A program made the translations under genes and the position numbers. A DNA stretch of 64,000 nt. It comes from Escherichia coli. GTDB lineage: Bacteria > Pseudomonadota > Gammaproteobacteria > Enterobacterales > Enterobacteriaceae. The notes under the pieces were generated by a model that was not told the origin of the DNA, made no database searches, and saw only the letters and a program-made list of their open reading frames with translations. Below are positions 7,735 through 28,403 of this stretch, one piece after another. Position 1 is the stretch's first letter. The number at the start of each line of letters is the position of its first letter. The stretch is from NCBI RefSeq assembly GCF_044647545.1, contig NZ_CP172818.1. The stretch is one strand, 5' to 3'.

Positions 7735-8975
7735 CAGGGTTTTACCCCCGTGTTTTCAGTTTCTACCCGATCCTGCGTTTCCATTGTCGGTTGTGCGGGG
7801 GGATCAACCTGCGCCAGACGTGGCGTGTGTGCCGGAAGCCAGCCAACCAGCGCCGGGAAGTGGCGTAAAAAGTGGAACGCCAGCACGCTTTTAGTCAGGT
7901 TCCACCAGGTGCGTTTGGGCAGCATGGTTTCATCCACCTGCTGACAATCTGCGGCGATGATGCCGTTCAGATTATCGCGCAGCGTCTGGTTAAAATGACG
8001 ATCGTGGATGATGACATTTGCTTCGAGATTCAGTGACAAACTGAGCGGATCGAGATTACTGGACCCTACTGTCGCCCAGTGATCGTCCATCAATGCTACT
8101 TTGCCGTGGAGCGGGCGGCGGCGGTACTCAAAAACCTGAACGCCGCCTTTAACCAGATAGTTATACAGCAAACGCGCACCGACTCTGACAATCGGCATAT
8201 CCGGTTCGCCCTGAATGATCAGTTTGATCCGCACCCCGCGCCGTGCCGCTTTACGCAAGGCGTGTAAAAATCGATAGCCGGGGAAGAAGTAGGCGTTGGC
8301 GATAATCACTTCTCGCCGCGCCTGAGTGAGCATTTTCAGATAGTGACGTTCAATATCATCGCGATGTTCTTCGTTATCGCGCCAGACCAGCAATACCTGC
8401 GCTTCTCCCGGCTGGCGGTTCTCTTCCGCTTTGTGATGACGTCGCCACCAGCGTCGTGCCGCGCTCTGTCCTGGCAGGTTTTCCAGTTCAAATTGCAGAA
8501 TATCTTCGACAATCGGCCCTTCAAGGCGCACCGCGTAATCCTGTTTAGCCTCTGGACCGTAGCTGGACATATGCTCGGCGGAGTAATTCAGCCCGCCAAT
8601 AAAGGCGATAAGCGCGTCGATCACCACAATTTTGCGATGCATCCGGCGAAACACATTGGTGCGCATACCAAAAAGGCGCGGGCGGGGATCGTAGTAGCGA
8701 AATACCACGCCAGCTGCCGTCAGTTCATTGACAAACTCATCGCTGAGATCCGGCGAACCGTAGCCATCCAGCAAGACTTCCGCTTTCACCCCGCGTTGCG
8801 CTGCTGCCAGTAGCGCCGCATGCAGCTGTTTGCCGACGTCATCCTCAAACCAGATAAACGTTTCAAGAATGATGCGTTCTTGCGCCTCGCCAATCGCCTT
8901 AAACACCGCGGGATAATATTGCTCGCCGTTTTCCAGCAACTGGATCTTATTGCCTTCGCGCCAGCTACATTTCAT
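7734..8975 (-). CDS. clsB: Cardiolipin synthase B (phospholipase D family)
   Basis: 413 aa ORF with HxK-type PLD motifs; overlaps ybhP. Confidence 0.95.
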
Positions 8976-9733
8976 AAATGAATCTCCGCACTTAAAGGGG
9001 CATGATCAGAAAGGTGTCGCCATGTCCGCAGCGGCAACGCGGTTGGCGCGCTGGCGCTGGCATTTTTGACGTAGATCCTGTCCAGTCGTAGTAGAGGAAA
9101 TTGCACCGGAAACGTGCGCGCCGGGCGTCCGTGGGCGCGGGTAAAAATCTCATCCAGTCCGGCCTGCACTTTTAACGGATGATTAGCTTTTTGCCGCCAG
9201 TCATTGAAATCACCCGCCACCAATACCGGTTCGCCGTCCGGTAGCTCATTCACCCATTCGGCGAGCATCGCAAGCTGCGCCTGACGGTGCGCCTCACGCA
9301 GGCCCAGATGTACGCACATCACATGAATCGCTTTCCCGGTCATCGGCGGCACAATGCGGCAGTAGAGCACGCCGCGCTTTTCCGCACCATCGACCGAAAC
9401 ATCACGATTCTCATAATGTTCAATGGGATAACGTGAAAGAACCGCATTACCGTGATGTCCTTCCGGGTATACGGCATTGCGACCGTAGGCGAAATCGCTC
9501 CACATGGTGTCGGCGAGAAACTCGTAGTGCGAGGTATCGGGCCAGTTTTCCACATGCAGCGGATGAACTTCGTGCGCGCCCATCACTTCCTGCAGGCAAA
9601 CAATATCGGCACTGACGGTACGCACGGCGTCGCGAAGTTCCGGCAAAATGAAGCGTCGGTTAAACGCGGTAAAGCCTTTGTGAATATTGATGGTGAGCAC
9701 CTTGAACGAAAATTGTTGTGTTTGATCGGGCAT
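8972..9733 (-). CDS. ybhP: Endonuclease/exonuclease/phosphatase family protein
   Basis: 253 aa ORF, first gene of the ybhP-clsB-ybhN operon. Confidence 0.9.
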
Positions 9734-9865
9734 AATTTTCCTGTCTTTGCCTCTTATCTCATTGAAATAGTGTAGTCGGCGTCACAAAAAGGTGCGGTCT
9801 TACGGAATTTTCCGTAAAGTTCGGTACTCTGAATAAGTAGAGATAAATTCTTCAGGAGAGAAGCC

Positions 9866-10276
9866 ATGAAGTGGCAACAACGTGTTCGTGTCGCAACGGG
9901 TCTAAGTTGCTGGCAGATTATGTTGCATTTACTGGTAGTGGCGCTGCTGGTGGTGGGCTGGATGAGTAAGACTCTGGTTCACGTCGGCGTGGGATTATGC
10001 GCACTGTATTGTGTCACGGTAGTGATGATGCTGGTGTTTCAGCGCCACCCCGAGCAACGCTGGCGTGAGGTGGCAGACGTGCTGGAAGAGCTGACCACGA
10101 CCTGGTATTTTGGTGCAGCGCTGATTGTGCTGTGGCTGTTGTCCCGCGTACTGGAAAACAACTTTTTGCTGGCAATTGCAGGGCTGGCAATCCTTGCTGG
10201 CCCGGCGGTAGTGTCTTTGCTGGCGAAAGATAAGAAGTTACATCACCTTACGTCTAAACATCGCGTACGCCGCTGA
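9866..10276 (+). CDS. ybhQ: Inner membrane protein
   Basis: 136 aa hydrophobic ORF; 3' end overlaps convergent ybhR. Confidence 0.85.
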
Positions 10277-11344
10277 CCCTGTCGTGGCCGTTATCACCAG
10301 TAGCGGCCACAAACTATTCCACACAATATCCAGACTCGCATCCTTCAAATAAATCTGCTTGGTAATGTCCGTAAAGTGGCGAATAGGGTTAATCCACGTC
10401 AGATTTTGCAGCCACACTGGCATGTTTTCCACCGGCGAAACGTAACCGGAAAGGAGAATGGCGGGCATCATAAAGACAAACACGCCGATAAACGCCTGCT
10501 GTTGTGTCGAGCAGAGTGATGAAATCAACAGACCGAAGCCTACCAGCGATAAACCGTAAATCACCATCGTAAAGTAGAACAGCGCCAGCGATCCGGCGAA
10601 GGGGATTTGATACGCCCAGATACCAATCGCCAGCACAATGGTGGCCTGGAAGGTGGCGACAATTAATGCCGGTACGGCCTTGCCGATGAATATCTGCCAG
10701 GTGGTGAGCGGCGAAACCAGTAACTGATCGAGCGTACCTTGTTCACGTTCGCGGGCGACGGAAAGTGAAGTGACGATCATTACGCCGATAGTGGTGATCA
10801 TGGCGATCAGCGACGGCACCACAAACCATTTGTAGTCGAGATTCGGGTTATACCAGTTGCGTACCACCAGCTCGCTGTTGTTGGGTTTCGGTTTTCCTTC
10901 CAGCAGCTCCTGCTGATAATTTTTGACGATCTGTTGCAGGTAGTTGGCGGCAATTTGCGCACTGTTGGAGTTACGCCCGTCTAGGATCAACTGTAACGGC
11001 GCGGTCTGGAAGGTATCCAGTTTGCGCGAGAAGTCAGCCGGGAAACGCACCAGGAGTAACGCCTTTTGTGTGTCGATGGTCGGGCGGATCTCCTGCGGGC
11101 TTTTCAGCAGCAGCACATGGGTAAAGGCGCTGGCGCGGGCAAAACGTTGGGTCAGCTCCACCGAATGCTCGCCGTTATCTTCATCGTAGATGGCGATGGT
11201 GGCGTTAGTCACTTCCAGCGTGGCGGCGAACGGGAACAGGATCACCTGAATCAGCACGGGTAAAATAAGAATCGCACGGGTTTGCGGTTCGCGCAGCAGC
11301 GACTGCAACTCTTTGCGGATTAACGTCCATAAGCGATGAAACAT
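10238..11344 (-). CDS. ybhR: ABC-2 type efflux permease
   Basis: 368 aa ORF. Confidence 0.9.
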
Positions 11345-11354
11345 GCTCTTCTCC

Positions 11355-12480
11355 CTAATCCAGCCGACGTTTGGTTTTCAGCCACGTCAGGCCGATAAAC
11401 ATCACCGCCGAAGCGATCAAAAACAGCACGTTTACCACCAGCACCACTGGAATATTCCCGGCGAGGAACAGGCTTTGCAGGGTGCTGACGAAATAACGAG
11501 CGGGAATAATGTACGTCACCGCGCGGATCACCGCGGGCATACTGTCGATCTGAAAAATAAAGCCGGAAAGCATAATCGACGGCAGGAACGCGGCGTTCAG
11601 GGCGACCTGAGCGGCATTGAACTGGTTGCGGGTAATCGTGGAAATCAGTAGCCCCATCCCCAGGGTACTGAGTAAAAACAGGCTGGAGATAAAAAACAGA
11701 ATCAGCAGCGACCCGCGATACGGCACGCCGAGAATAAACACCGACACCAGCATACACAGCAACATCGCCAGCATCCCGAGAAAGTAATAAGGGATCAGCT
11801 TACACAGCAGCAGCTCCGTGCGGGTAATCTCCGTAGAGAGCAAAGCCTCCATGGTGCCGCGTTCCCATTCTCGCGCCACCACCAGCGAGGTGAGAATCGC
11901 ACCGATGACCGTCATGATAATAGTCACCGCACCGGGGATAATAAAGTGCTGGCTTATCGCCGCCGGGTTAAACCAGTAGCGGGTTTGTACATCAATAAGC
12001 GGTTCAAAAGTCTGCCCGTTATCCTCCGCGCGCTGCATTTGCCAGATCTGCCAGATCCCTTCGACATACCCCTGCACAAAGTTAGCGGTATTCGGCTCAC
12101 TGCCGTCGGTGATCACCTGAATCGGTGCAATGGCGTTGGCGCGCTCCATCTGTTCGGCGAAATCCACCGGAATAACCACCAGACCGCGAATTTTCCCCGC
12201 CTGCATTTTGGCGATCAGTTCCTGACGGTTATCGCTGATGGTGGCGTCGATGTAGGGCGAACCGGTCATGGTGTGGGTGAAATCCAGCGCCGCTTCGCTA
12301 CGCTGTTCCAGTAAAATCCCGACCCGCAGCTTGCTGGAGTCGAGGTTAATGCCGTAACCAAAAATAAACAGCAGTAGCAGCGGGATCACCACCGCAATCA
12401 GCCAGCTACTCGGATCGCGAACGATCTGCCGCGTCTCTTTGACGCACAGTGCCCGCACGCGACGCCAGGACAGGATCGGA

Positions 12481-12488
<8 letters not shown>
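11355..12488 (-). CDS. ybhS: ABC-2 type efflux permease
   Basis: ORF 11355..12494; start trimmed to give the expected 377 aa. Confidence 0.9.
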
Positions 12489-15879
<3,391 letters not shown>

Positions 15880-16107
15880 CGCACAGTCCATTCTTAATCA
15901 AATGATTGATTAAGATTATGACTCCATAGGGGAGTTGTCCAGTATGGCTAAGAATTTTAGCTACGCCAGTCACAGGGATAATTTATGCGCTGCGTCACAA
16001 AAACTGCTACACTCCGCTCCCTCATGACATTGTGGTTTTTGTCATTTTCCTTTTCAGTATCTCCCTGAAAACTACACCGGTAACGGTCGGGGCGGTTCGG
16101 AGTAGTT

Positions 16108-17469
16108 ATGTCTTTCGATTCTTTGGGTTTAAGCCCTGATATCCTGCGCGCCGTTGCCGAGCAGGGTTACCGTGAACCCACCCCTATTCAGCAGCAGGCG
16201 ATCCCTGCGGTGCTGGAAGGCCGCGACCTGATGGCCAGCGCCCAGACCGGTACCGGCAAAACAGCGGGCTTTACGCTGCCGCTGTTGCAACACCTGATCA
16301 CTCGCCAGCCGCACGCCAAAGGGCGTCGTCCGGTACGTGCGCTCATTCTTACCCCAACCCGTGAACTGGCGGCGCAGATTGGCGAAAACGTCCGTGATTA
16401 CAGCAAATACCTGAATATCCGTTCGCTGGTGGTGTTTGGCGGTGTCAGCATTAACCCGCAGATGATGAAGTTGCGCGGCGGCGTTGATGTGCTGGTGGCA
16501 ACGCCGGGACGTCTGCTGGACCTGGAACATCAGAATGCGGTGAAGCTGGATCAGGTTGAAATCCTCGTCCTCGATGAAGCTGACCGCATGCTCGACATGG
16601 GCTTTATCCACGATATCCGTCGCGTGTTAACAAAACTGCCAGCGAAGCGCCAGAACCTGTTGTTCTCCGCGACCTTCTCTGACGATATTAAAGCTCTGGC
16701 GGAAAAACTGTTGCACAACCCGCTGGAAATCGAAGTGGCACGCCGCAATACCGCGTCTGATCAGGTGACCCAGCATGTTCACTTTGTCGATAAGAAACGC
16801 AAACGCGAATTGCTGTCGCACATGATTGGGAAAGGGAACTGGCAGCAGGTGCTGGTGTTTACCCGTACCAAACATGGCGCTAACCATCTCGCTGAACAGC
16901 TCAATAAAGATGGCATCCGTAGTGCGGCGATCCACGGTAATAAATCGCAAGGTGCGCGTACTCGTGCGCTGGCCGATTTTAAATCGGGCGATATTCGTGT
17001 ACTGGTGGCAACTGACATCGCTGCGCGCGGCCTGGATATTGAAGAGCTGCCGCACGTGGTCAACTATGAACTGCCAAACGTACCGGAAGATTATGTCCAC
17101 CGTATCGGGCGTACCGGTCGTGCGGCTGCTACCGGTGAAGCGTTGTCGCTGGTGTGTGTTGATGAACACAAACTGCTGCGTGATATCGAAAAACTGCTGA
17201 AAAAAGAGATCCCGCGCATTGCGATTCCGGGGTATGAGCCGGACCCGTCAATCAAAGCCGAACCGATACAGAACGGTCGCCAGCAACGTGGCGGCGGTCG
17301 TGGACAAGGCGGTGGTCGCGGTCAACAGCAACCACGCCGTGCGGAAAGTGGTGCGAAGTCTGGTAACGCGAAGCCCGCAGAAAAACCGTCTCGTCGTCCC
17401 GGCGATGCCAAACCGGCAGGCGAACAACAACGTCGCCGCCGTCCGCGTAAACCTGCCGCTGCGCAGTAA
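16108..17469 (+). CDS. rhlE: ATP-dependent DEAD-box RNA helicase
   Basis: 453 aa ORF with Q motif, Walker A (AQTGTGKT), DEAD and SAT motifs; basic Gly/Arg-rich tail. Confidence 0.95.
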
Positions 17470-17474
17470 TCTTT

Positions 17475-17621
<147 letters not shown>

Positions 17622-17702
17622 TTTCACAACAAGCACTTGTCAGCAATTTGAGAACACGGGAAAAAATTTCTCTGTTTTACCTCCCATAAGCCACCCGAGA
17701 CG

Positions 17703-18185
17703 TTACTTCTCTATAGCCAATTGTTCGCGCAACTCCATTAAAAGGTAGCCCAGTCGATTCTTGCCCTTACCATTACCACCGTCTCCCCAGTAAGCATCAT
17801 TTTCCGTATGCTCAACCAGTTTTGCGGGCGCGGTTGCCAGCAAGAGCGCACGCAGTTCTGCATGCTGTTCGAATTTAGCGCGAAGTGCTTTTCGCATCAC
17901 CTGTTCTTTGACCGACTCCCAGTTTTTACGCAGAGGCTTAGAACGATCGCGCCCCATGCGTGCGGCGACCATAGGGGAAGAAACCCGACGGATCTCTTCG
18001 CGGTATTTTTCATCAAGGAATTTTTGTGCCTGAAAATAGTGTTCTGAGGTGGGCCAGGTTTTCCCGTCAACCTTGATGGGCCAGGCGGCAAAGTTAGAAA
18101 AATCACCGTAGTCATCGCCGGTGCTGTAGAAATTTATGATGGTGTCTTGCATGACGTGTTGGATCCTTTGTGCTCGAACGGGCAT
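17703..18185 (-). CDS. ybiA: N-glycosidase acting on riboflavin-pathway intermediates
   Basis: 160 aa ORF. Confidence 0.9.
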   Translation of the reverse strand: MPVRAQRIQHVMQDTIINFYSTGDDYGDFSNFAAWPIKVDGKTWPTSEHYFQAQKFLDEKYREEIRRVSSPMVAARMGRDRSKPLRKNWESVKEQVMRKALRAKFEQHAELRALLLATAPAKLVEHTENDAYWGDGGNGKGKNRLGYLLMELREQLAIEK

Positions 18186-18270
18186 TAAACCGCATTATGT
18201 TGATGGTTATTGCGAGCCGCTTTCCAGAAACAGAAAAACCATTACCCCTGAAAACCGAAAAATGCCACAA

Positions 18271-18290
18271 TATTGGCTGTTTATACAGTA
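18271..18290 (+). promoter_or_regulatory. LexA (SOS) box in the dinG promoter
   Basis: tattggCTGTttatACAGta, CTGT-N4-ACAG core, 15 nt upstream of the dinG ATG; spacing is shorter than the canonical CTGT-N8-ACAG SOS box and the dinG operator is known to be non-canonical. Confidence 0.8.
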
Positions 18291-18304
18291 TTTCAGGTTT
18301 TCTC

Positions 18305-20455
18305 ATGGCATTAACCGCCGCGCTTAAAGCGCAAATTGCCGCCTGGTATAAGGCGCTTCAGGAACAGATCCCCGACTTTATTCCCCGTGCGCCGCAGCGG
18401 CAGATGATTGCGGACGTCGCCAAAACGCTGGCCGGAGAAGAAGGGCGGCATCTGGCGATTGAAGCACCCACCGGCGTTGGGAAAACGCTCTCCTATTTGA
18501 TCCCCGGCATCGCCATTGCCCGCGAAGAGCAAAAAACGCTGGTGGTAAGTACCGCCAACGTGGCATTGCAGGATCAGATCTACAGCAAAGATTTACCGCT
18601 GCTGAAAAAGATCATTCCCGATCTTAAATTCACTGCTGCTTTTGGGCGTGGGCGCTACGTTTGCCCGCGTAATCTGACGGCGCTCGCCAGTACTGAACCC
18701 ACGCAACAGGATCTGCTGGCGTTTCTTGACGACGAGCTGACACCGAACAATCAGGAAGAGCAAAAACGTTGTGCGAAGCTGAAGGGCGATCTCGACACTT
18801 ATAAATGGGATGGCCTGCGCGATCATACTGATATCGCTATAGATGATGATCTCTGGCGTCGTTTGAGTACCGACAAAGCCAGCTGCCTCAACCGCAACTG
18901 TTACTACTATCGCGAATGCCCGTTTTTTGTTGCTCGTCGGGAAATTCAGGAAGCGGAAGTGGTGGTGGCAAACCATGCGCTGGTGATGGCGGCGATGGAA
19001 AGCGAAGCCGTATTGCCTGACCCGAAAAATTTACTGCTGGTGCTGGACGAAGGTCATCACCTGCCAGATGTGGCGCGGGATGCGCTGGAGATGAGCGCCG
19101 AAATCACCGCGCCCTGGTATCGACTACAGTTGGACTTGTTCACGAAACTGGTCGCTACCTGCATGGAGCAGTTTCGCCCGAAGACCATCCCACCGCTGGC
19201 GATCCCTGAACGTTTGAATGCGCATTGTGAAGAGCTGTATGAGCTTATCGCCTCGTTAAACAACATTCTCAATCTCTACATGCCTGCCGGGCAGGAGGCA
19301 GAGCACCGTTTTGCGATGGGCGAACTGCCTGATGAAGTGCAGGAGATCTGCCAGCGGCTGGCAAAACTCACCGAGATGCTGCGTGGCCTGGCGGAGTTAT
19401 TTCTTAACGATTTAAGTGAGAAAACCGGCAGCCATGACATTGTACGTCTGCATCGGTTGATTTTGCAGATGAATCGCGCGTTGGGGATGTTCGAGGCGCA
19501 AAGCAAACTCTGGCGGCTGGCGTCTCTGGCGCAATCTTCCGGTGCGCCGGTGACCAAATGGGCGACGCGGGAAGAGCGCGAAGGGCAGCTGCATCTCTGG
19601 TTTCACTGTGTGGGTATTCGTGTCAGCGATCAGCTGGAAAGGCTGCTGTGGCGCAGTATTCCGCACATTATTGTCACCTCCGCAACCTTGCGTTCGCTGA
19701 ACAGTTTTTCGCGTTTGCAGGAGATGAGTGGTCTGAAAGAGAAAGCGGGCGACCGTTTTGTGGCGCTGGATTCCCCCTTCAACCACTGCGAACAGGGCAA
19801 AATTGTTATTCCCCGGATGCGCGTTGAGCCTTCTCTCGACAACGAAGAGCAGCATATTGCCGAAATGGCGGCCTTTTTCCGTAAGCAGGTGGAGAGCAAA
19901 AAACATCTCGGTATGTTGGTACTGTTTGCCAGCGGACGGGCGATGCAGCGCTTTCTCGACTATGTGACGGATTTACGTCTGATGTTGCTGGTGCAGGGCG
20001 ATCAGCCGCGTTACCGTTTAGTTGAACTGCACCGCAAACGCGTCGCCAACGGTGAGCGCAGCGTGCTGGTGGGCTTACAGTCATTTGCCGAAGGGCTTGA
20101 TCTGAAAGGCGATCTGCTCAGCCAGGTGCATATCCACAAAATCGCTTTTCCGCCCATCGACAGTCCGGTGGTGATCACCGAAGGTGAATGGCTGAAAAGC
20201 CTCAACCGCTATCCGTTTGAGGTGCAAAGCCTGCCGAGCGCTTCGTTTAACCTGATTCAGCAGGTTGGGCGACTGATTCGAAGCCACGGTTGCTGGGGGG
20301 AAGTGGTTATCTACGACAAACGCTTGCTGACCAAAAATTATGGCAAGCGACTACTGGATGCATTACCGGTATTTCCGATAGAGCAACCGGAAGTCCCTGA
20401 AGGTATAGTTAAAAAGAAAGAAAAAACGAAATCCCCACGCCGTCGGCGGCGTTAA
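18305..20455 (+). CDS. dinG: ATP-dependent DNA helicase DinG (damage-inducible, Fe-S)
   Basis: 716 aa from ATG at 18305 (MALTAALKAQIAAWYK...); the 761 aa ORF-track entry is an upstream extension. Confidence 0.95.
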   Translation: MALTAALKAQIAAWYKALQEQIPDFIPRAPQRQMIADVAKTLAGEEGRHLAIEAPTGVGKTLSYLIPGIAIAREEQKTLVVSTANVALQDQIYSKDLPLLKKIIPDLKFTAAFGRGRYVCPRNLTALASTEPTQQDLLAFLDDELTPNNQEEQKRCAKLKGDLDTYKWDGLRDHTDIAIDDDLWRRLSTDKASCLNRNCYYYRECPFFVARREIQEAEVVVANHALVMAAMESEAVLPDPKNLLLVLDEGHHLPDVARDALEMSAEITAPWYRLQLDLFTKLVATCMEQFRPKTIPPLAIPERLNAHCEELYELIASLNNILNLYMPAGQEAEHRFAMGELPDEVQEICQRLAKLTEMLRGLAELFLNDLSEKTGSHDIVRLHRLILQMNRALGMFEAQSKLWRLASLAQSSGAPVTKWATREEREGQLHLWFHCVGIRVSDQLERLLWRSIPHIIVTSATLRSLNSFSRLQEMSGLKEKAGDRFVALDSPFNHCEQGKIVIPRMRVEPSLDNEEQHIAEMAAFFRKQVESKKHLGMLVLFASGRAMQRFLDYVTDLRLMLLVQGDQPRYRLVELHRKRVANGERSVLVGLQSFAEGLDLKGDLLSQVHIHKIAFPPIDSPVVITEGEWLKSLNRYPFEVQSLPSASFNLIQQVGRLIRSHGCWGEVVIYDKRLLTKNYGKRLLDALPVFPIEQPEVPEGIVKKKEKTKSPRRRRR

Positions 20456-20482
20456 TGATGTGAGTCAGGTAAGGAGTCGTAA

Positions 20483-21445
<963 letters not shown>

Positions 21446-21451
21446 TTCTTT

Positions 21452-22671
<1,220 letters not shown>

Positions 22672-22677
22672 AAAAAA

Positions 22678-22699
22678 GCCCGTCCAGTGGCGGACGGGC
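22678..22699 (-). terminator. Stem-loop between convergent hcxB and ybiJ
   Basis: gcccgtcc-agtgg-cggacgggc hairpin; the U-run lies on the minus-strand side. Confidence 0.55.
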
Positions 22700-22809
22700 A
22701 AACAAGGGTAACATAGGATCAATGAGGGTTAGAGCATATGCGTCTGTCGGCAAACAGACAGGGAAATACTTGTGCTGAACGTAGCGTAACCGCCTGATTA
22801 GCATACGAA

Positions 22810-23070
22810 TTACTTATAAATTACCGCAGTACCGCTTAATTTATTGTTGTTGGTGGCAGAAGTGATGCTGTATCCACTGGCACCGGCCGCCGCGGCTTTC
22901 TCAGCCAGTTTCGCTTCCAGGGCATCGAGGGTGGATGCGCCATCGGCAGAAACCACGCCGATTTTATTCATGTTCTGTGCCTGGGATGCCGTTACCGGTT
23001 CCGCCGCGAACACGCCAAATGACAGAGTTGAAAGAGCCATAGCAGCAACAACAGTATTGATAGTTTTCAT
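22810..23070 (-). CDS. ybiJ: DUF1471 (YhcN-family) small periplasmic protein
   Basis: 86 aa with signal peptide, ends GTAVIYK; paralog of mcbA. Confidence 0.9.
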   Translation of the reverse strand: MKTINTVVAAMALSTLSFGVFAAEPVTASQAQNMNKIGVVSADGASTLDALEAKLAEKAAAAGASGYSITSATNNNKLSGTAVIYK

Positions 23071-23334
23071 AATTAATCTCTCGCAGGTGATTTTTGTATA
23101 AGTGACGTTGTTTCGTCGATGTGATGAGTATCACGTTTTTTTACGAGAGATAAAATCGAAGAGAATTGACCGCCTTGTTCAAATAAATTGATTGATATCT
23201 AACATACTGATAAACCATTTATTTGTTGTACTTATGGACTTGTTTTATACCGCGTGGCAGTCACGGTAGCGTTAAAGGCACGGAATGCCACGCAAAATAC
23301 AAATTATACTCGCTATACATCCCGCCAGTTGTAG

Positions 23335-23601
23335 TTAACGTAACTGGCTGTCTTTCGAACCTCTGCGATTATATCCTGTATAAGCTGGTTTTTGTAAATC
23401 TTTCTCCTGCTGACAATGAATGCATAAGCGCACGCCAGGAATGGCTTCCCGACGGGCCTGCGGGATAGGGGCACCGCACTCTTCACATTCATACAGGCTT
23501 TCGCCATGCGGAATTTCACCCCGAGCGCGGGCAATCGCATCTTCAATTGTACTGTTGATCTGTTCGTTGACGGCGTCATCATTAGCCCAACCGGATGCCA
23601 T
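23335..23601 (-). CDS. ybiI: DksA/TraR-type C4 zinc-finger protein
   Basis: 88 aa with CxxC...CxxC (CEECGAPI...CIHCQ). Confidence 0.9.
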   Translation of the reverse strand: MASGWANDDAVNEQINSTIEDAIARARGEIPHGESLYECEECGAPIPQARREAIPGVRLCIHCQQEKDLQKPAYTGYNRRGSKDSQLR

Positions 23602-23674
23602 ATCGTCCTCCCCATATCAATGCTTGTACAGCTAAGTGTAGCTAATATAGGGACGAACTCGGGCAGTTCAAGCG

Positions 23675-24352
23675 TCAGATCTCCGACCATTCCCGCAGCA
23701 GATTATGATAAAGATTGAGCAGCGACAGGATCTCTTCACTTTCGCCATGGCGGCTTTTCAGCGACTGAATATTGGTGTCCAGTTCGAACAGCATGGCGCG
23801 CTTTTTATCATCGCGGATCATCGACTGGATCCACATAAATGATGCCACCCGTACGCCACGGGTTACGGGTGTCACGCAGTGCAGGCTGCTGGAAGGGTAC
23901 AACACCAGATCGCCTGCCGGGAGTTTTACCCGATGTTGCCCGAAGGTGTCATTAACGACCAGTTCGCCGCCGTCGTAGCTTTCTGGATCGCTTAAAAACA
24001 GCGTGGCAGAAAGGTCAGTGCGCATCCAGCCGTTTTGTGGATGGCTGCGTACTGCGCCATCCACATGGAAACCATAGGTTTCATTGTTCTGATAGCGATT
24101 AAACAGCGGCGTGGAAAGGGTACGCGGCAAGGCCGCGGCAAAGAACAAAGCATGTTGATTAACCGCGTTCAGCACCTCATTTTGCAGGGCGGCGTATAAC
24201 GTGCTGCGGGTGTCTACCTGTTGATTGTTCTTAACTTGCGCACCTTGTGCGCCGGTGGTGACGCGTCCATCCACCCATTCGGCTTGTTCCAGTTGTTCGC
24301 GAAACCGGGCGACGTCCTTTGGCGATAGCACGCCGGGAATGTGGTACATCAT
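23675..24352 (-). CDS. ybiX: PKHD-type Fe(II)/2-oxoglutarate-dependent hydroxylase
   Basis: 225 aa from internal Met (MMYHIPGVL...); directly downstream of fiu. Confidence 0.85.
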
Positions 24353-24393
24353 ACAAGTTCTCCAAAAAATGGGGCCTGCGCCCCACATCTGAA

Positions 24394-26676
24394 TCAGAAA
24401 TGCATATTGGCCGTGAGCAAGAAGGTTCTTGGCTCGCCCGGGTGATAACGGTAGCCGCTCTTGTTGATTGAGGCGACGTAATCGGTATCAAACAGGTTGT
24501 AGACGTTTAGCTGGAAGTCGAGATTGCGATTAACCCGATACCCCAGTTTAGCGTCGGCGACCCAATAACCTTCGGTAAACGCTGGCGTTCCCACCGCGCC
24601 GTCAGAACCTTTATGCATACTGCCGATATACCGTGCGCCCGCACCAACGGAAATATCATCGGTTGCCTGATATTGGCTCCATAAGGTAAAGGCGTGCTCC
24701 GGCGTATAGGGCAGCGATGAGGAACCATCTTGGGCAACATCTTTGCCGTTTTTGATGGTTGCTTTTTGCTGGGTATAGCCGCCAATCACCTGCCACGCGG
24801 GAGTGATATTCCCGGCCACGGATATCTCATAGCCTTCGACGCGTTTCTTACCGTATTGCGAGTAAGTTCCGTCATCATTTTGCTCAACTTCATTTTCGAT
24901 ATCAGTACGGAACAGCGCGGCGGTGAGCAACAGGCGTTTATCCAGAACCTGCCATTTGGTGCCAATCTCGCTGGTGTTGGCTTTTTGCGGTTTAAAATCG
25001 GTGCGGTTGGCACTGTTACCGCTGCCAGACTGCGCAAGGGCGAAGTTGTTGCCGCCCGGCGGCTGCTGGGAAACGGCATAGTTAATATAGACATTGCCGT
25101 TTTCCGTCAGGTGATACAGCGCCCCGGCTTTCCAGTTCACCAGATTGCCCGACTTGGCGGTATCGACGGTGGTGACCGGAGAACCTTTTGCCACGCCAGC
25201 AGGGCAGGTGATGGCACCGCGTCCGCTGCCGCCGCAGGCGGTGGCACTGTCATATTCAGTATGATAATTATCCAGACGGATCCCGCCGTTCAGCTCAAAA
25301 TCACGGGTGATTTGCAGCGTATCGAAGGCGTAAATTGCGAAGGTATCCGTCTGACCATTGGCGTTTGCGCCGTTGCGCGTCAGGCCGCCGGGATGAATGC
25401 TGCTGTCAGGATGATAAATATTTACCGCAGGTAACGTCACCGGATTAACGCCGTAGTTAGTCTGCGTTTCACGGGTAAATTCCACGCCGGTACTGACATC
25501 ATGACCGATAGAACCGGTATAGAACGTCGAGGTCAGGTTGGTCTGGTTGGTGAGAATTTTATTACTCACATCTTTAGTATTCGCCGTGCGTGACCAGGTC
25601 CAGCTATTCACATCGCTGGTGGGCTGGGTAATATTCGACGCCCCGCCCATAATCGCCGTCATCAGGTAATCCTGCTTCACGCGCGACCAACGGGTAGTAT
25701 TGCGAATGGTGGTGTTATCGTTGATGTCGTGCTCAAAACGCATGGTAGCGGTGTCGGTGGTCGAATCGTCGTAATCGGAATCCGTGCCGTAAAAGTTATG
25801 CGTATCAACTTTTCCGGAATGATTCAGGGCCGCCGTTCCCGCAGATGGGGCAGAATAACCCGGTAAACCGATGGTCGGAATGCCGCCGTCTGGCGTGTTG
25901 TGCTGGGTGACATGCAGATAATTAAGATACAAACGATTCGCTGTACCAAGGCCAAAAGCGACAGAAGGGGCGACGCCGTAACGCTCATTTTTGACTTTGT
26001 CGCGTCCGGCATCGTGCGTTTTTTCGCCCATCACGTTCAGGCGCACCGCAGTGGTATCACCAATGACCTGATTGACGTCCAGCGTGCCGCGGCGGAACCA
26101 GGCGCTGCCAATACTCGCGGAGGCGTCAATGCCCGAATCATTGCGCGGCTGCTTGCTGATCATATTGATCGAGCCCGTCGGCGCGCTGCGCCCGTAGTCG
26201 GTGCCGGACGGCCCTTTAATTACTTCGACCTGCTCGGTATTGAAGGTGTCGCGCGAGACGCTGCCGATATCGCGAATGCCATCAATATAAATACTGTTAG
26301 AAGTATCGGCACCGCGCATATAAATGGCGTCGCCAGTGGTGGAGTTACCGTTCTCACCCGCAAAAAACGCACCCACGCCGGGGACGTTTTTGAGCGCGTC
26401 GGTAAGGTTGGTTGCGCCCTGATCTTTAATCACTTGTTCAGAAATCACCGTCATCGTGCGGGTAGTATCCGCTACCGGACGCGAGAATTTCGGATCGGCA
26501 GATTGTTGTGGCGCATAAAGCGAAGGCGTTGATGCTTCGACAACCAGCGTGTCATCCGCGTTAGTTTGCCCTTCGGCGGCGAGAGCCTGAGCCACAGGCG
26601 TGATGCCAATACAAAGACCGGCAAAGAACGTGAGCGAATGAAATTGTCTGGCAGGGAAATTGCGATTGTTTTCCAT
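24394..26676 (-). CDS. fiu: TonB-dependent catecholate siderophore receptor
   Basis: 760 aa ORF with signal peptide and C-terminal aromatic residue (ends ...ANMHF). Confidence 0.95.
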
Positions 26677-26780
26677 TTTGCAGGTGACTTTTTCTTATAT
26701 GTTGAAATTTTCACTGCCACGAGAAAGCATCTCTGCGGATGCGATGCCACTGTTAATCTCGTGATAGCGTTCGTGCAAGT

Positions 26781-26806
26781 GATAATAATTTTGATAAGCA
26801 TTATCA
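26781..26806 (-). promoter_or_regulatory. Fur box in the fiu promoter
   Basis: gataataattttgataagcattatca, close to the GATAATGATAATCATTATC consensus, about 100 nt upstream of the fiu start. Confidence 0.75.
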
Positions 26807-26940
26807 CTTAGCGCGATTTTCTATCACCCATTGCGCGAAAAAGAAATACATTTATTTACATTGCGTTCATATTTGATGTTTTTTGCTTACAAATCGGACG
26901 AAAACTGCATCCAGAGGCGAATGCAGTTACGTTGGTGGGG

Positions 26941-27201
26941 TTATTTGTAGATGATTGCAGTACCGAACATCTGGTCATTTCCGCCTGCGGAATTAATGAC
27001 ATAACCTTTCGCGCCTTGTTCGCGCGCTTTTTCTGCCAGTTTATCCTCCAGATCGCTTAGGTTTGATGCGCCAGTTGCCGAAACGGTACCGGCGGGCCGT
27101 AGCTGACCGCTGTCCAGGTTACTCATCGGTTGCGCGGCATAAGCCGTGAGAGAGATTCCGCTCAGGACGGTGGCAATCAGTAGTGTGAGGCACTTTTTCA
27201 T
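26941..27201 (-). CDS. mcbA: DUF1471 (YhcN-family) periplasmic protein, colanic-acid mucoidy/biofilm regulator
   Basis: 86 aa from internal Met (MKKCLTLLIAT...), ends GTAIIYK. Confidence 0.9.
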   Translation of the reverse strand: MKKCLTLLIATVLSGISLTAYAAQPMSNLDSGQLRPAGTVSATGASNLSDLEDKLAEKAREQGAKGYVINSAGGNDQMFGTAIIYK

Positions 27202-27476
27202 AATGACATCCTCATAAATACAACGGGTAGTGCCTGATAAGTGTAGGTCGCCTGGGCGATGAAAATGACGCAAAAAATTGACAGAGATGTGCTTGTTTTT
27301 TGAACGATATATTTTTACAAAACAAGACAAATCAATGATATGCATAATGCTGACTTTTATGATGAATTGCCATAAACCATAGCCATGTGAAGGTTTATAG
27401 AAATGATAAACGCAGCCAGATATTTACCCTGTCGCGTTATGCGGGTATCTTACGCCGCTGCTTAAAGGAGAATGCT

Positions 27477-28403
27477 ATGTCCGCCCAGAAACCGGGGTTG
27501 CATCCGCGCAACCGTCATCACAGCCGCTACGATCTCGCCACGCTTTGTCAGGTCAATCCTGAACTCAGGCAATTCCTCACGCTTACACCCGCCGGGGAGC
27601 AAAGCGTAGACTTTGCCAATCCGCTGGCGGTGAAGGCGCTCAATAAGGCGTTGCTGGCCCATTTTTACGCCGTAGCGAACTGGGATATCCCCGACGGTTT
27701 TCTCTGCCCACCAGTACCGGGCCGGGCGGATTATATTCATCACCTTGCCGATTTACTGGCAGAAGCAACAGGATCAATTCCAGCTAATGCCAGCATTCTG
27801 GATATCGGCGTTGGTGCGAACTGTATTTATCCGCTGATTGGCGTACATGAATATGGCTGGCGTTTTACTGGTAGTGAAACCAGCAGCCAGGCGTTAAGCA
27901 GTGCGCAGGCGATCATCAGTGCTAATCCGGGGCTTAACCGCGCCATTCGTCTGCGTCGGCAAAAAGAGAGTGGGGCGATTTTTAACGGCATCATCCATAA
28001 AAACGAGCAATACGACGCGACCTTGTGTAACCCGCCATTCCACGATTCCGCCGCTGCGGCACGGGCAGGTAGTGAACGTAAACGCCGTAACCTGGGGCTA
28101 AACAAAGACGATGCACTGAATTTTGGTGGTCAGCAACAGGAGTTGTGGTGTGAAGGCGGTGAAGTCGCTTTTATTAAAAAGATGATTGAAGAGAGCAAAG
28201 GCTTCGCGAAGCAGGTGATGTGGTTTACCTCGCTGGTATCTCGTGGTGAAAACTTACCGCCGTTGTATCGTGCCCTGACGGACGTGGGCGCGGTGAAGGT
28301 GGTTAAAAAAGAGATGGCCCAGGGGCAAAAGCAGAGTCGCTTTATTGCCTGGACCTTTATGAACGACGAGCAGCGCCGCCGTTTTGTCAATCGCCAGCGT
28401 TAA
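27477..28403 (+). CDS. rlmF: 23S rRNA (adenine1618-N6)-methyltransferase
   Basis: 308 aa from internal Met ([12 protein letters not shown]...); NPPF motif. Confidence 0.9.

Follow-up and report, generated by a model that had tools for sequence, protein, structure and literature searches.

The 64,000-nucleotide stretch of Escherichia coli DNA analysed here (contig NZ_CP172818.1; hereafter the window) carries an rhlE gene whose 453 aa product ends in a repetitive, basic tail. A sequence-only reading of the window had regarded these repeats as prone to indels and had called for a check of read support across them. We were particularly interested in whether the length of 453 codons reflects a natural allele or an artefact, and in what kind of tail would allow such a change of length.

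The rhlE gene and its C-terminal tail

The coding sequence, 453 codons followed by a TAA stop, occupies 16108..17469 on the plus strand according to the ORF list and the sequence, and GGAG is found 7–10 nt 5′ of its ATG. The product matched the NCBIfam equivalog NF007882, 'ATP-dependent RNA helicase RhlE', with 975.2 bits (cutoff 743) and from end to end, residues 1–453 being aligned to profile positions 1–456 of 456. In every genome matched, the gene was annotated as rhlE. The two RecA-like domains of a DEAD-box SF2 helicase, DEAD and Helicase_C, were both present, domain 1 (Pfam PF00270, aa 25–196) at 16180..16695 (plus strand, E = 2.5e-50) and domain 2 (Pfam PF00271, aa 232–339) at 16801..17124 (plus strand, E = 6.5e-31). 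The signature motifs AQTGTGKT (aa 45–52), DEAD (156–159), SAT (187–189) and HRIGRTGR (331–338) conform to the patterns AxTGxGKT (Walker A), D-E-A-D, SAT and HRxGRxGR, and their residues fell in invariant columns of a 42-sequence alignment. The gene is flanked by cecR on its 5′ side and by ybiA and dinG on its 3′ side, and the order cecR–rhlE–ybiA–dinG is that of K-12 and FDAARGOS_497, which is the conserved genomic position of the E. coli RhlE orthologue. The ORF is E. coli RNA helicase RhlE.

The helicase core is followed by a C-terminal extension of 69 residues (aa 385–453; 17260..17466, plus strand), as we define it here. It consists largely of Gly (18.8%), Arg (18.8%), Gln (14.5%), Ala (13%) and Pro (11.6%). 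Its net charge is +13 and that of the 384-aa core +7, and 1.4% of the tail residues are bulky and hydrophobic, versus 32% in the core. The minimum 20-residue Shannon entropy of RhlE, 1.72 bits, was the lowest among the 60 window ORFs of at least 150 aa, the runner-up being at 2.29 bits, and the low complexity of the tail therefore exceeds what is expected by chance. The Gly/Arg-rich, basic and repetitive character attributed to the tail by the sequence-only reading was thus borne out by composition and charge, and the peptide quoted there was found exactly. The span given for it, 17261–17469, does contain the tail, but begins at the second base of codon 385, the boundary being at 17260, and includes the stop codon (17467–17469); the quoted peptide itself starts at G390 (17275).

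The tail is predicted to be an intrinsically disordered, basic, low-complexity region. In the charge–hydropathy plot it fell on the disordered side (H = 0.279 versus a boundary of 0.481) while the core fell on the folded side, and low hydropathy, high net charge, low complexity and lack of predicted secondary structure, the features of an intrinsically disordered region, were found together. An AlphaFold model, computed from an alignment of 42 sequences that are at least 85% identical and used only for the secondary structure of the tail, showed by DSSP neither helix nor strand past residue 364 except for isolated one-residue bridges at 373 and 376. The pLDDT was 29–40 in the tail and 26–82 in the core; because the whole model was poor (mean 50.2, shallow alignment), low pLDDT in the tail discriminates only weakly. 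A search of solved structures returned none of RhlE itself. Among the matches listed, solved DEAD-box chains cover RhlE up to about residue 365–378, and the only chain reaching past ~378 is that of yeast Dbp2, which has a Gly/Arg-rich C-terminus of its own and runs to residue 420.

Several elements can be told apart within and next to the tail. A hinge between the core and the low-complexity block (aa 375–393; 17230..17286, plus strand) is nearly identical in the Enterobacteriaceae homologues listed. It is followed by a Gly/Arg/Gln block (aa 394–408; 17287..17331, plus strand), in which sequence inspection and a regex search found a tri-RG motif and two GGGRGQ units. The block contains the first glycine run, GGC GGC GGT (G395–G397; 17290..17298, plus strand), located by a DNA alignment of nine alleles, and the second one, GGC GGT GGT (G401–G403; 17308..17316, plus strand), located by the allele comparison. 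The conserved end of the tail is an arginine cluster, RRRRPRK (aa 442–448; 17431..17451, plus strand), seen in the 42-sequence alignment. The GGGRGQ unit occurs twice in the tail, its two 18-nt copies being identical at 15/18 bases. Tandem Repeats Finder detected no DNA tandem array inside the tail when run on 17100–17700, its sole match being the hairpin past the stop codon. The repetition of the tail is at the protein level.

The tail had also been described as RGG-like. Using the definitions of Thandapani as quoted in PMC9957100, the tri-RG pattern RG(X0-4)RG(X0-4)RG was matched by regex at aa 394–405, and neither di-RGG nor tri-RGG patterns, RGG(X0-4)RGG with or without a third (X0-4)RGG, were found in the tail. 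A single literal RGG is present, at R394, and the Gly/Arg block is ~12 residues long. These definitions make the tail a tri-RG motif and not an RGG box, so that it can fairly be labelled 'RGG-like' but not 'RGG box'. In the 455-aa O157-type allele a spacer grows to 5 residues, which breaks the tri-RG pattern.

Length alleles and tail haplotypes

The rhlE gene of K-12 MG1655 is 1365 nt long and encodes 454 aa (WP_000007101.1), compared with 1362 nt and 453 aa in the window; the suspected difference of one codon from the reference is real. The nine-allele alignment placed it in the first glycine run, which reads GGC GGC GGC GGT in K-12 and is short by one GGC in the window, and this codon is the sole length difference between the two genes. 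The K-12 protein shares locus, domain order and tail architecture with that of the window, and its coding sequence is 96.7% identical at the nucleotide level. Its tail haplotype (GEGGAKSASAK...RRLGD, versus ...RRPGD in the window) differs at 16/210 nt. The O157:H7-type allele has gained a GGT in the second glycine run and encodes 455 aa. The three E. coli lengths of 453, 454 and 455 aa therefore differ only by whole Gly codons, in both glycine runs, which agrees with the proposal that the repeats are prone to indels. Identity to a reference, which had been offered as grounds for dismissing the length difference, depends on the reference chosen: the window gene departs from K-12 rhlE and is identical, without any difference, to that of ST648-type E. 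coli such as FDAARGOS_497 (RefSeq WP_022645405.1).

The call for read support implied that a codon might have been lost because a GC-rich triplet run collapsed in one assembly. GGC runs are a known weak spot, and four RhlE entries (P0023, P0040, P0020 and P0058) lose their frame in or just past the Gly/Arg block. However, the change in the window amounts to exactly three bases, is in frame and leaves the protein ending with the conserved motif. Moreover, at least 60 independent complete E. coli genomes of ST648 type, including strains ST648, ECONIH1, MS6198 and IMT16316, carry a gene with 100% identity to it, about 24% of complete genomes have the short run, and alleles with this run have linked SNPs in common (codon 399 GGA, codon 401 GGC). 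We therefore attach almost no weight to a sequencing or assembly error, and the doubt about the assembly was not upheld.

The frequency of the length alleles was estimated in 5353 complete E. coli genomes with a 68-nt probe spanning both glycine runs, alleles being told apart by identity band. The 453-aa type accounted for 1269 of the 5353 genomes (103 exact matches and 1166 in the ungapped 95–99% band; ~24%), the 454-aa type for 3772 (one-gap band, 3 nt; ~70%) and the 455-aa type of O157:H7 for 312 (two-gap band; ~6%). Identity bands can misassign a few genomes, and record lengths fitted the band in 38 of 40 sampled rows, the exceptions being H202, whose partial alignment put it in the wrong band, and H199, whose clipped alignment was in the right one. 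These shares agree with a rank-stratified sample of 60 genomes, in which rhlE was 1362 nt long in 13, 1365 nt in 44 and 1368 nt in 3; the B2 strains ATCC 25922, NC101 and EC958 belonged to the 1362-nt set. The 453-aa rhlE is a common natural in-frame allele and not an artefact. The sequence found in the window is fixed in ST648-type genomes, and the short-run state also occurs in B2 strains. Since the tail has been described before and RefSeq already contains the allele, the finding is an ordinary one; for annotation, the 453-aa RhlE should be treated as the normal ST648/B2-type allele and be flagged neither as an error nor as a variant of concern. In the same genome collection, 70 rhlE-bearing genomes gave no match to the tail probe, and further tail variants may exist; 2 of 5427 rhlE matches were on plasmids, and a few genomes had two rhlE copies.

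The origin of the three-glycine state was considered in a comparison of 15 alleles. All four distinct three-Gly alleles examined share GGA at codon 399, GGC at codon 401 and one tail haplotype. The tail of the window differs from the three-Gly tails of B2 strains at 3–4/210 nt and from K-12-type tails at 16–19/210 nt, whereas the cores differ by ~2.3–3% whether the window is compared with B2 or with K-12-type alleles. E. coli thus holds two deeply diverged tail haplotypes, ~8% apart in nucleotides versus 2–3% for the core, and these are unlinked from the core phylogeny (window versus L001–L014). The window rhlE is a mosaic of a non-B2 core and a B2-type tail. In ESBLEC_MG32 a K-12-type Gly block is joined to a B2-type downstream tail, and this allele looks like a recombinant with its breakpoint between the two.

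Loss of the codon more than once, by slippage in separate lineages (ST648/phylogroup F and B2), would account for the neighbour-joining tree of the core, in which the window allele stands apart from the B2 alleles, and would be in keeping with a glycine-run length that varies freely across genera and with the O157 type having acquired its second-run insertion independently. The flanking SNPs and the tail haplotype common to the four three-Gly alleles, with the small distance of their tails from that of the window, argue against it, and the recombinant look of ESBLEC_MG32 fits a shuffling of tails by recombination. Recurrent slippage is therefore considered unlikely. A single deletion on one tail haplotype, followed by recombination between backgrounds, fits these data better, in what is a small sample. 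One could go further and suppose that glycine-run length (3/3, 4/3, 4/4) and the diverged haplotypes are not neutral and tune the RNA affinity or condensate threshold of RhlE in extra-intestinal (B2, ST648) versus commensal or O157 lineages, being kept or moved by recombination accordingly; we regard this as highly speculative and very improbable.

Constraint and proposed function of the tail

Selection on the tail was compared with that on the core in 14 alleles. The dN/dS was 0.093 for the tail and 0.007 for the core, the tail being ~13 times more relaxed, and nucleotide diversity was 6.0% and 3.1%, respectively. Purifying selection thus acts on the tail as a coding sequence, though much less strictly than on the core. 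Other-frame and antisense ORFs over the tail (17219..17572, plus strand; 17248..17430, 17252..17518 and 17322..17636, minus strand) were rejected as by-products of its 64% GC content, because dN/dS in the rhlE frame is 0.09 and the encoded tail is conserved across genera. The four frame-shifted RhlE entries named above have a normal core, continue in another frame and are 500–545 aa long, P0023 reading the same +1 frame as window ORF 17219..17572. They are probably products of sequencing or assembly frameshifts.

Among 120 Enterobacteriaceae cluster representatives, intact tails extend about 68–126 residues past the GYEPD anchor, and the net charge from GYEPD to the C-terminus stays between +9 and +16 across Enterobacteriaceae tails. 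Both the hinge and the terminal RRRRPRKP motif hardly vary at all, in contrast to the lengths of the Gly/Arg/Gln block and of the middle of the tail: glycine runs range from 2 to 6 residues across the family, and in Kosakonia and Franconibacter local repeats have expanded the middle. In the 42-sequence alignment, the hinge residues G375, D379, P380, S381, I382, A384, P386, I387, G390 and R391 were invariant, as was R447, and R442, R444, P446 and K448 were conserved in at least 90% of these Enterobacteriaceae sequences. The terminal arginine motif was visible in nearly all Enterobacteriaceae tails. The tail is thus a clean bacterial case of a disordered region whose length drifts by whole GGY codons while charge, hinge and terminal arginines are held.

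Our overall explanation, to which we give a probability of about 0.85, is that of a natural in-frame allele with tolerated Gly-codon indels and a disordered, polycationic tail that tethers RNA. The pattern of alleles suggests that the length changes arise when short triplet runs gain or lose whole GGY codons, replication slippage being the probable mechanism. The tail itself would be an intrinsically disordered polycation that serves as a nonspecific RNA tether, through which the RecA-like core may gain local affinity for RNA and unwind it more efficiently. The multivalency on which RhlE foci and condensates depend could also come from the tail. The tail would be constrained for composition and charge rather than for exact sequence, the hinge and the terminal RRRRPRKP cluster being its most constrained parts; with function resting on charge and composition, whole-codon Gly indels would therefore be tolerated, and adding or removing one glycine should have next to no functional effect.

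A role of the tail in RNA binding and condensate formation by E. coli RhlE is inferred by analogy with the P. aeruginosa proteins RhlE1 and RhlE2 and with the basic extension of RhlB. The C-terminal extensions of RhlE proteins are diverse and quickly evolving (PMC8266600). RNA binding and unwinding by P. aeruginosa RhlE1 and RhlE2, and also their phase separation, are promoted by the disordered regions of these proteins (PMC11260450), and RhlB requires its basic extension for ATP turnover stimulated by RNA (PMC3814787). Condensate-forming DEAD-box ATPases of the Hondele type are characterised by ATP- and RNA-dependent phase separation that relies on a low-complexity tail. In E. coli, RhlE is seen in foci (PMC7414142) and colocalises with condensates of DeaD (PMC12758526), and the large particles obtained by crosslinking are enriched in it (PMC13106914). 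The literature searched yielded no published experiment that addresses the E. coli RhlE tail, by deletion or otherwise. RhlE1 and RhlE2 belong to the same helicase family and likewise join a conserved core to a fast-evolving basic or low-complexity C-terminal extension, but they differ in composition, RhlE1 being lysine-rich and RhlE2 containing a long Gly/Glu-rich stretch. The window protein scored below the NCBIfam cutoffs for both, with 559 versus 750 for RhlE1 and 625 versus 925 for RhlE2.

Alternatively, the main role of the tail could be docking, with a short linear motif that recognises a specific protein or ribosomal partner such as RNase E, poly(A) polymerase or 50S precursors, rather than nonspecific RNA tethering. 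The near-invariance of the hinge and the tail end beside a drifting middle would suit such a module, both RNase E and poly(A) polymerase are bound in vitro by RhlE of E. coli (PMC1616957), and in P. aeruginosa RhlE2 the extension is both required for binding RNase E and sufficient for it (PMC11260450, PMC8266600). The RhlE2–RNase E interaction, however, is RNA-dependent (PMC8266600), and the conserved end of the tail is an arginine cluster, as expected for the binding of a polyanion. Docking and RNA tethering are also compatible with each other, and docking as the main role appears doubtful. The three natural alleles form a ready series for testing how disordered tails set RNA binding and condensate formation.

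Eukaryotic RGG/RG (GAR) motifs, such as the C-terminal RGG region of yeast Dbp2 and the tri-RG class that includes DDX4 (PMC9957100), likewise place a Gly/Arg-rich disordered segment on a DEAD-box core. The window RhlE differs from them in having a single RGG and a short block. Arginine methylation by PRMTs is a hallmark of the eukaryotic GAR motifs. Such methylation is not expected in E. coli.

DNA flanking rhlE

A perfect 11-bp inverted repeat with a 3-nt loop and no T-run (17475..17499, no strand assigned) lies 6 nt past the rhlE stop. A terminator and promoter scan identified no canonical intrinsic terminator 3′ of rhlE and no convincing promoter, and the hairpin at 17475–17499 was not called. 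In the rhlE–ybiA spacer (17470–17702), two inverted REP-like arms are located at 17538–17551 and 17587–17600. Rfam ES036 (CssrF) matched 17544–17586 on the minus strand with a score of 43.3 (gathering 37.6), and a partial naRNA4 match at 17590–17625 remained below the gathering score. The spacer looks like an ordinary REP/BIME cluster.

The 20 kb around rhlE (window 8000–28000) match at least 12 complete ST648-type genomes at every base but one, which is intergenic. This base is missing at window 22798–22799, where the window reads CCTGAT^TAGCATACG and FDAARGOS_497 reads CCTGATCTAGCATACG, between a 19-aa hypothetical ORF and the ybiJ stop. In the loci compared, the DNA just 3′ of rhlE is variable among lineages. 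An extra gene is present at about 1822–1965 in L006 (a PaaA2-family antitoxin), L010 and L012 (hypothetical protein), and the B2 genomes L005, L007 and L009 retain only a truncated ybiA/NADAR pseudogene 3′ of rhlE (about 1895–1962). The ybiA gene of the window is intact (17703–18185). The mechanical dinG ORF, which begins with a GTG at 18170, overlaps ybiA, and genomes with an identical sequence have the start annotated at what is window position 18305 (MALTAALKAQ...).
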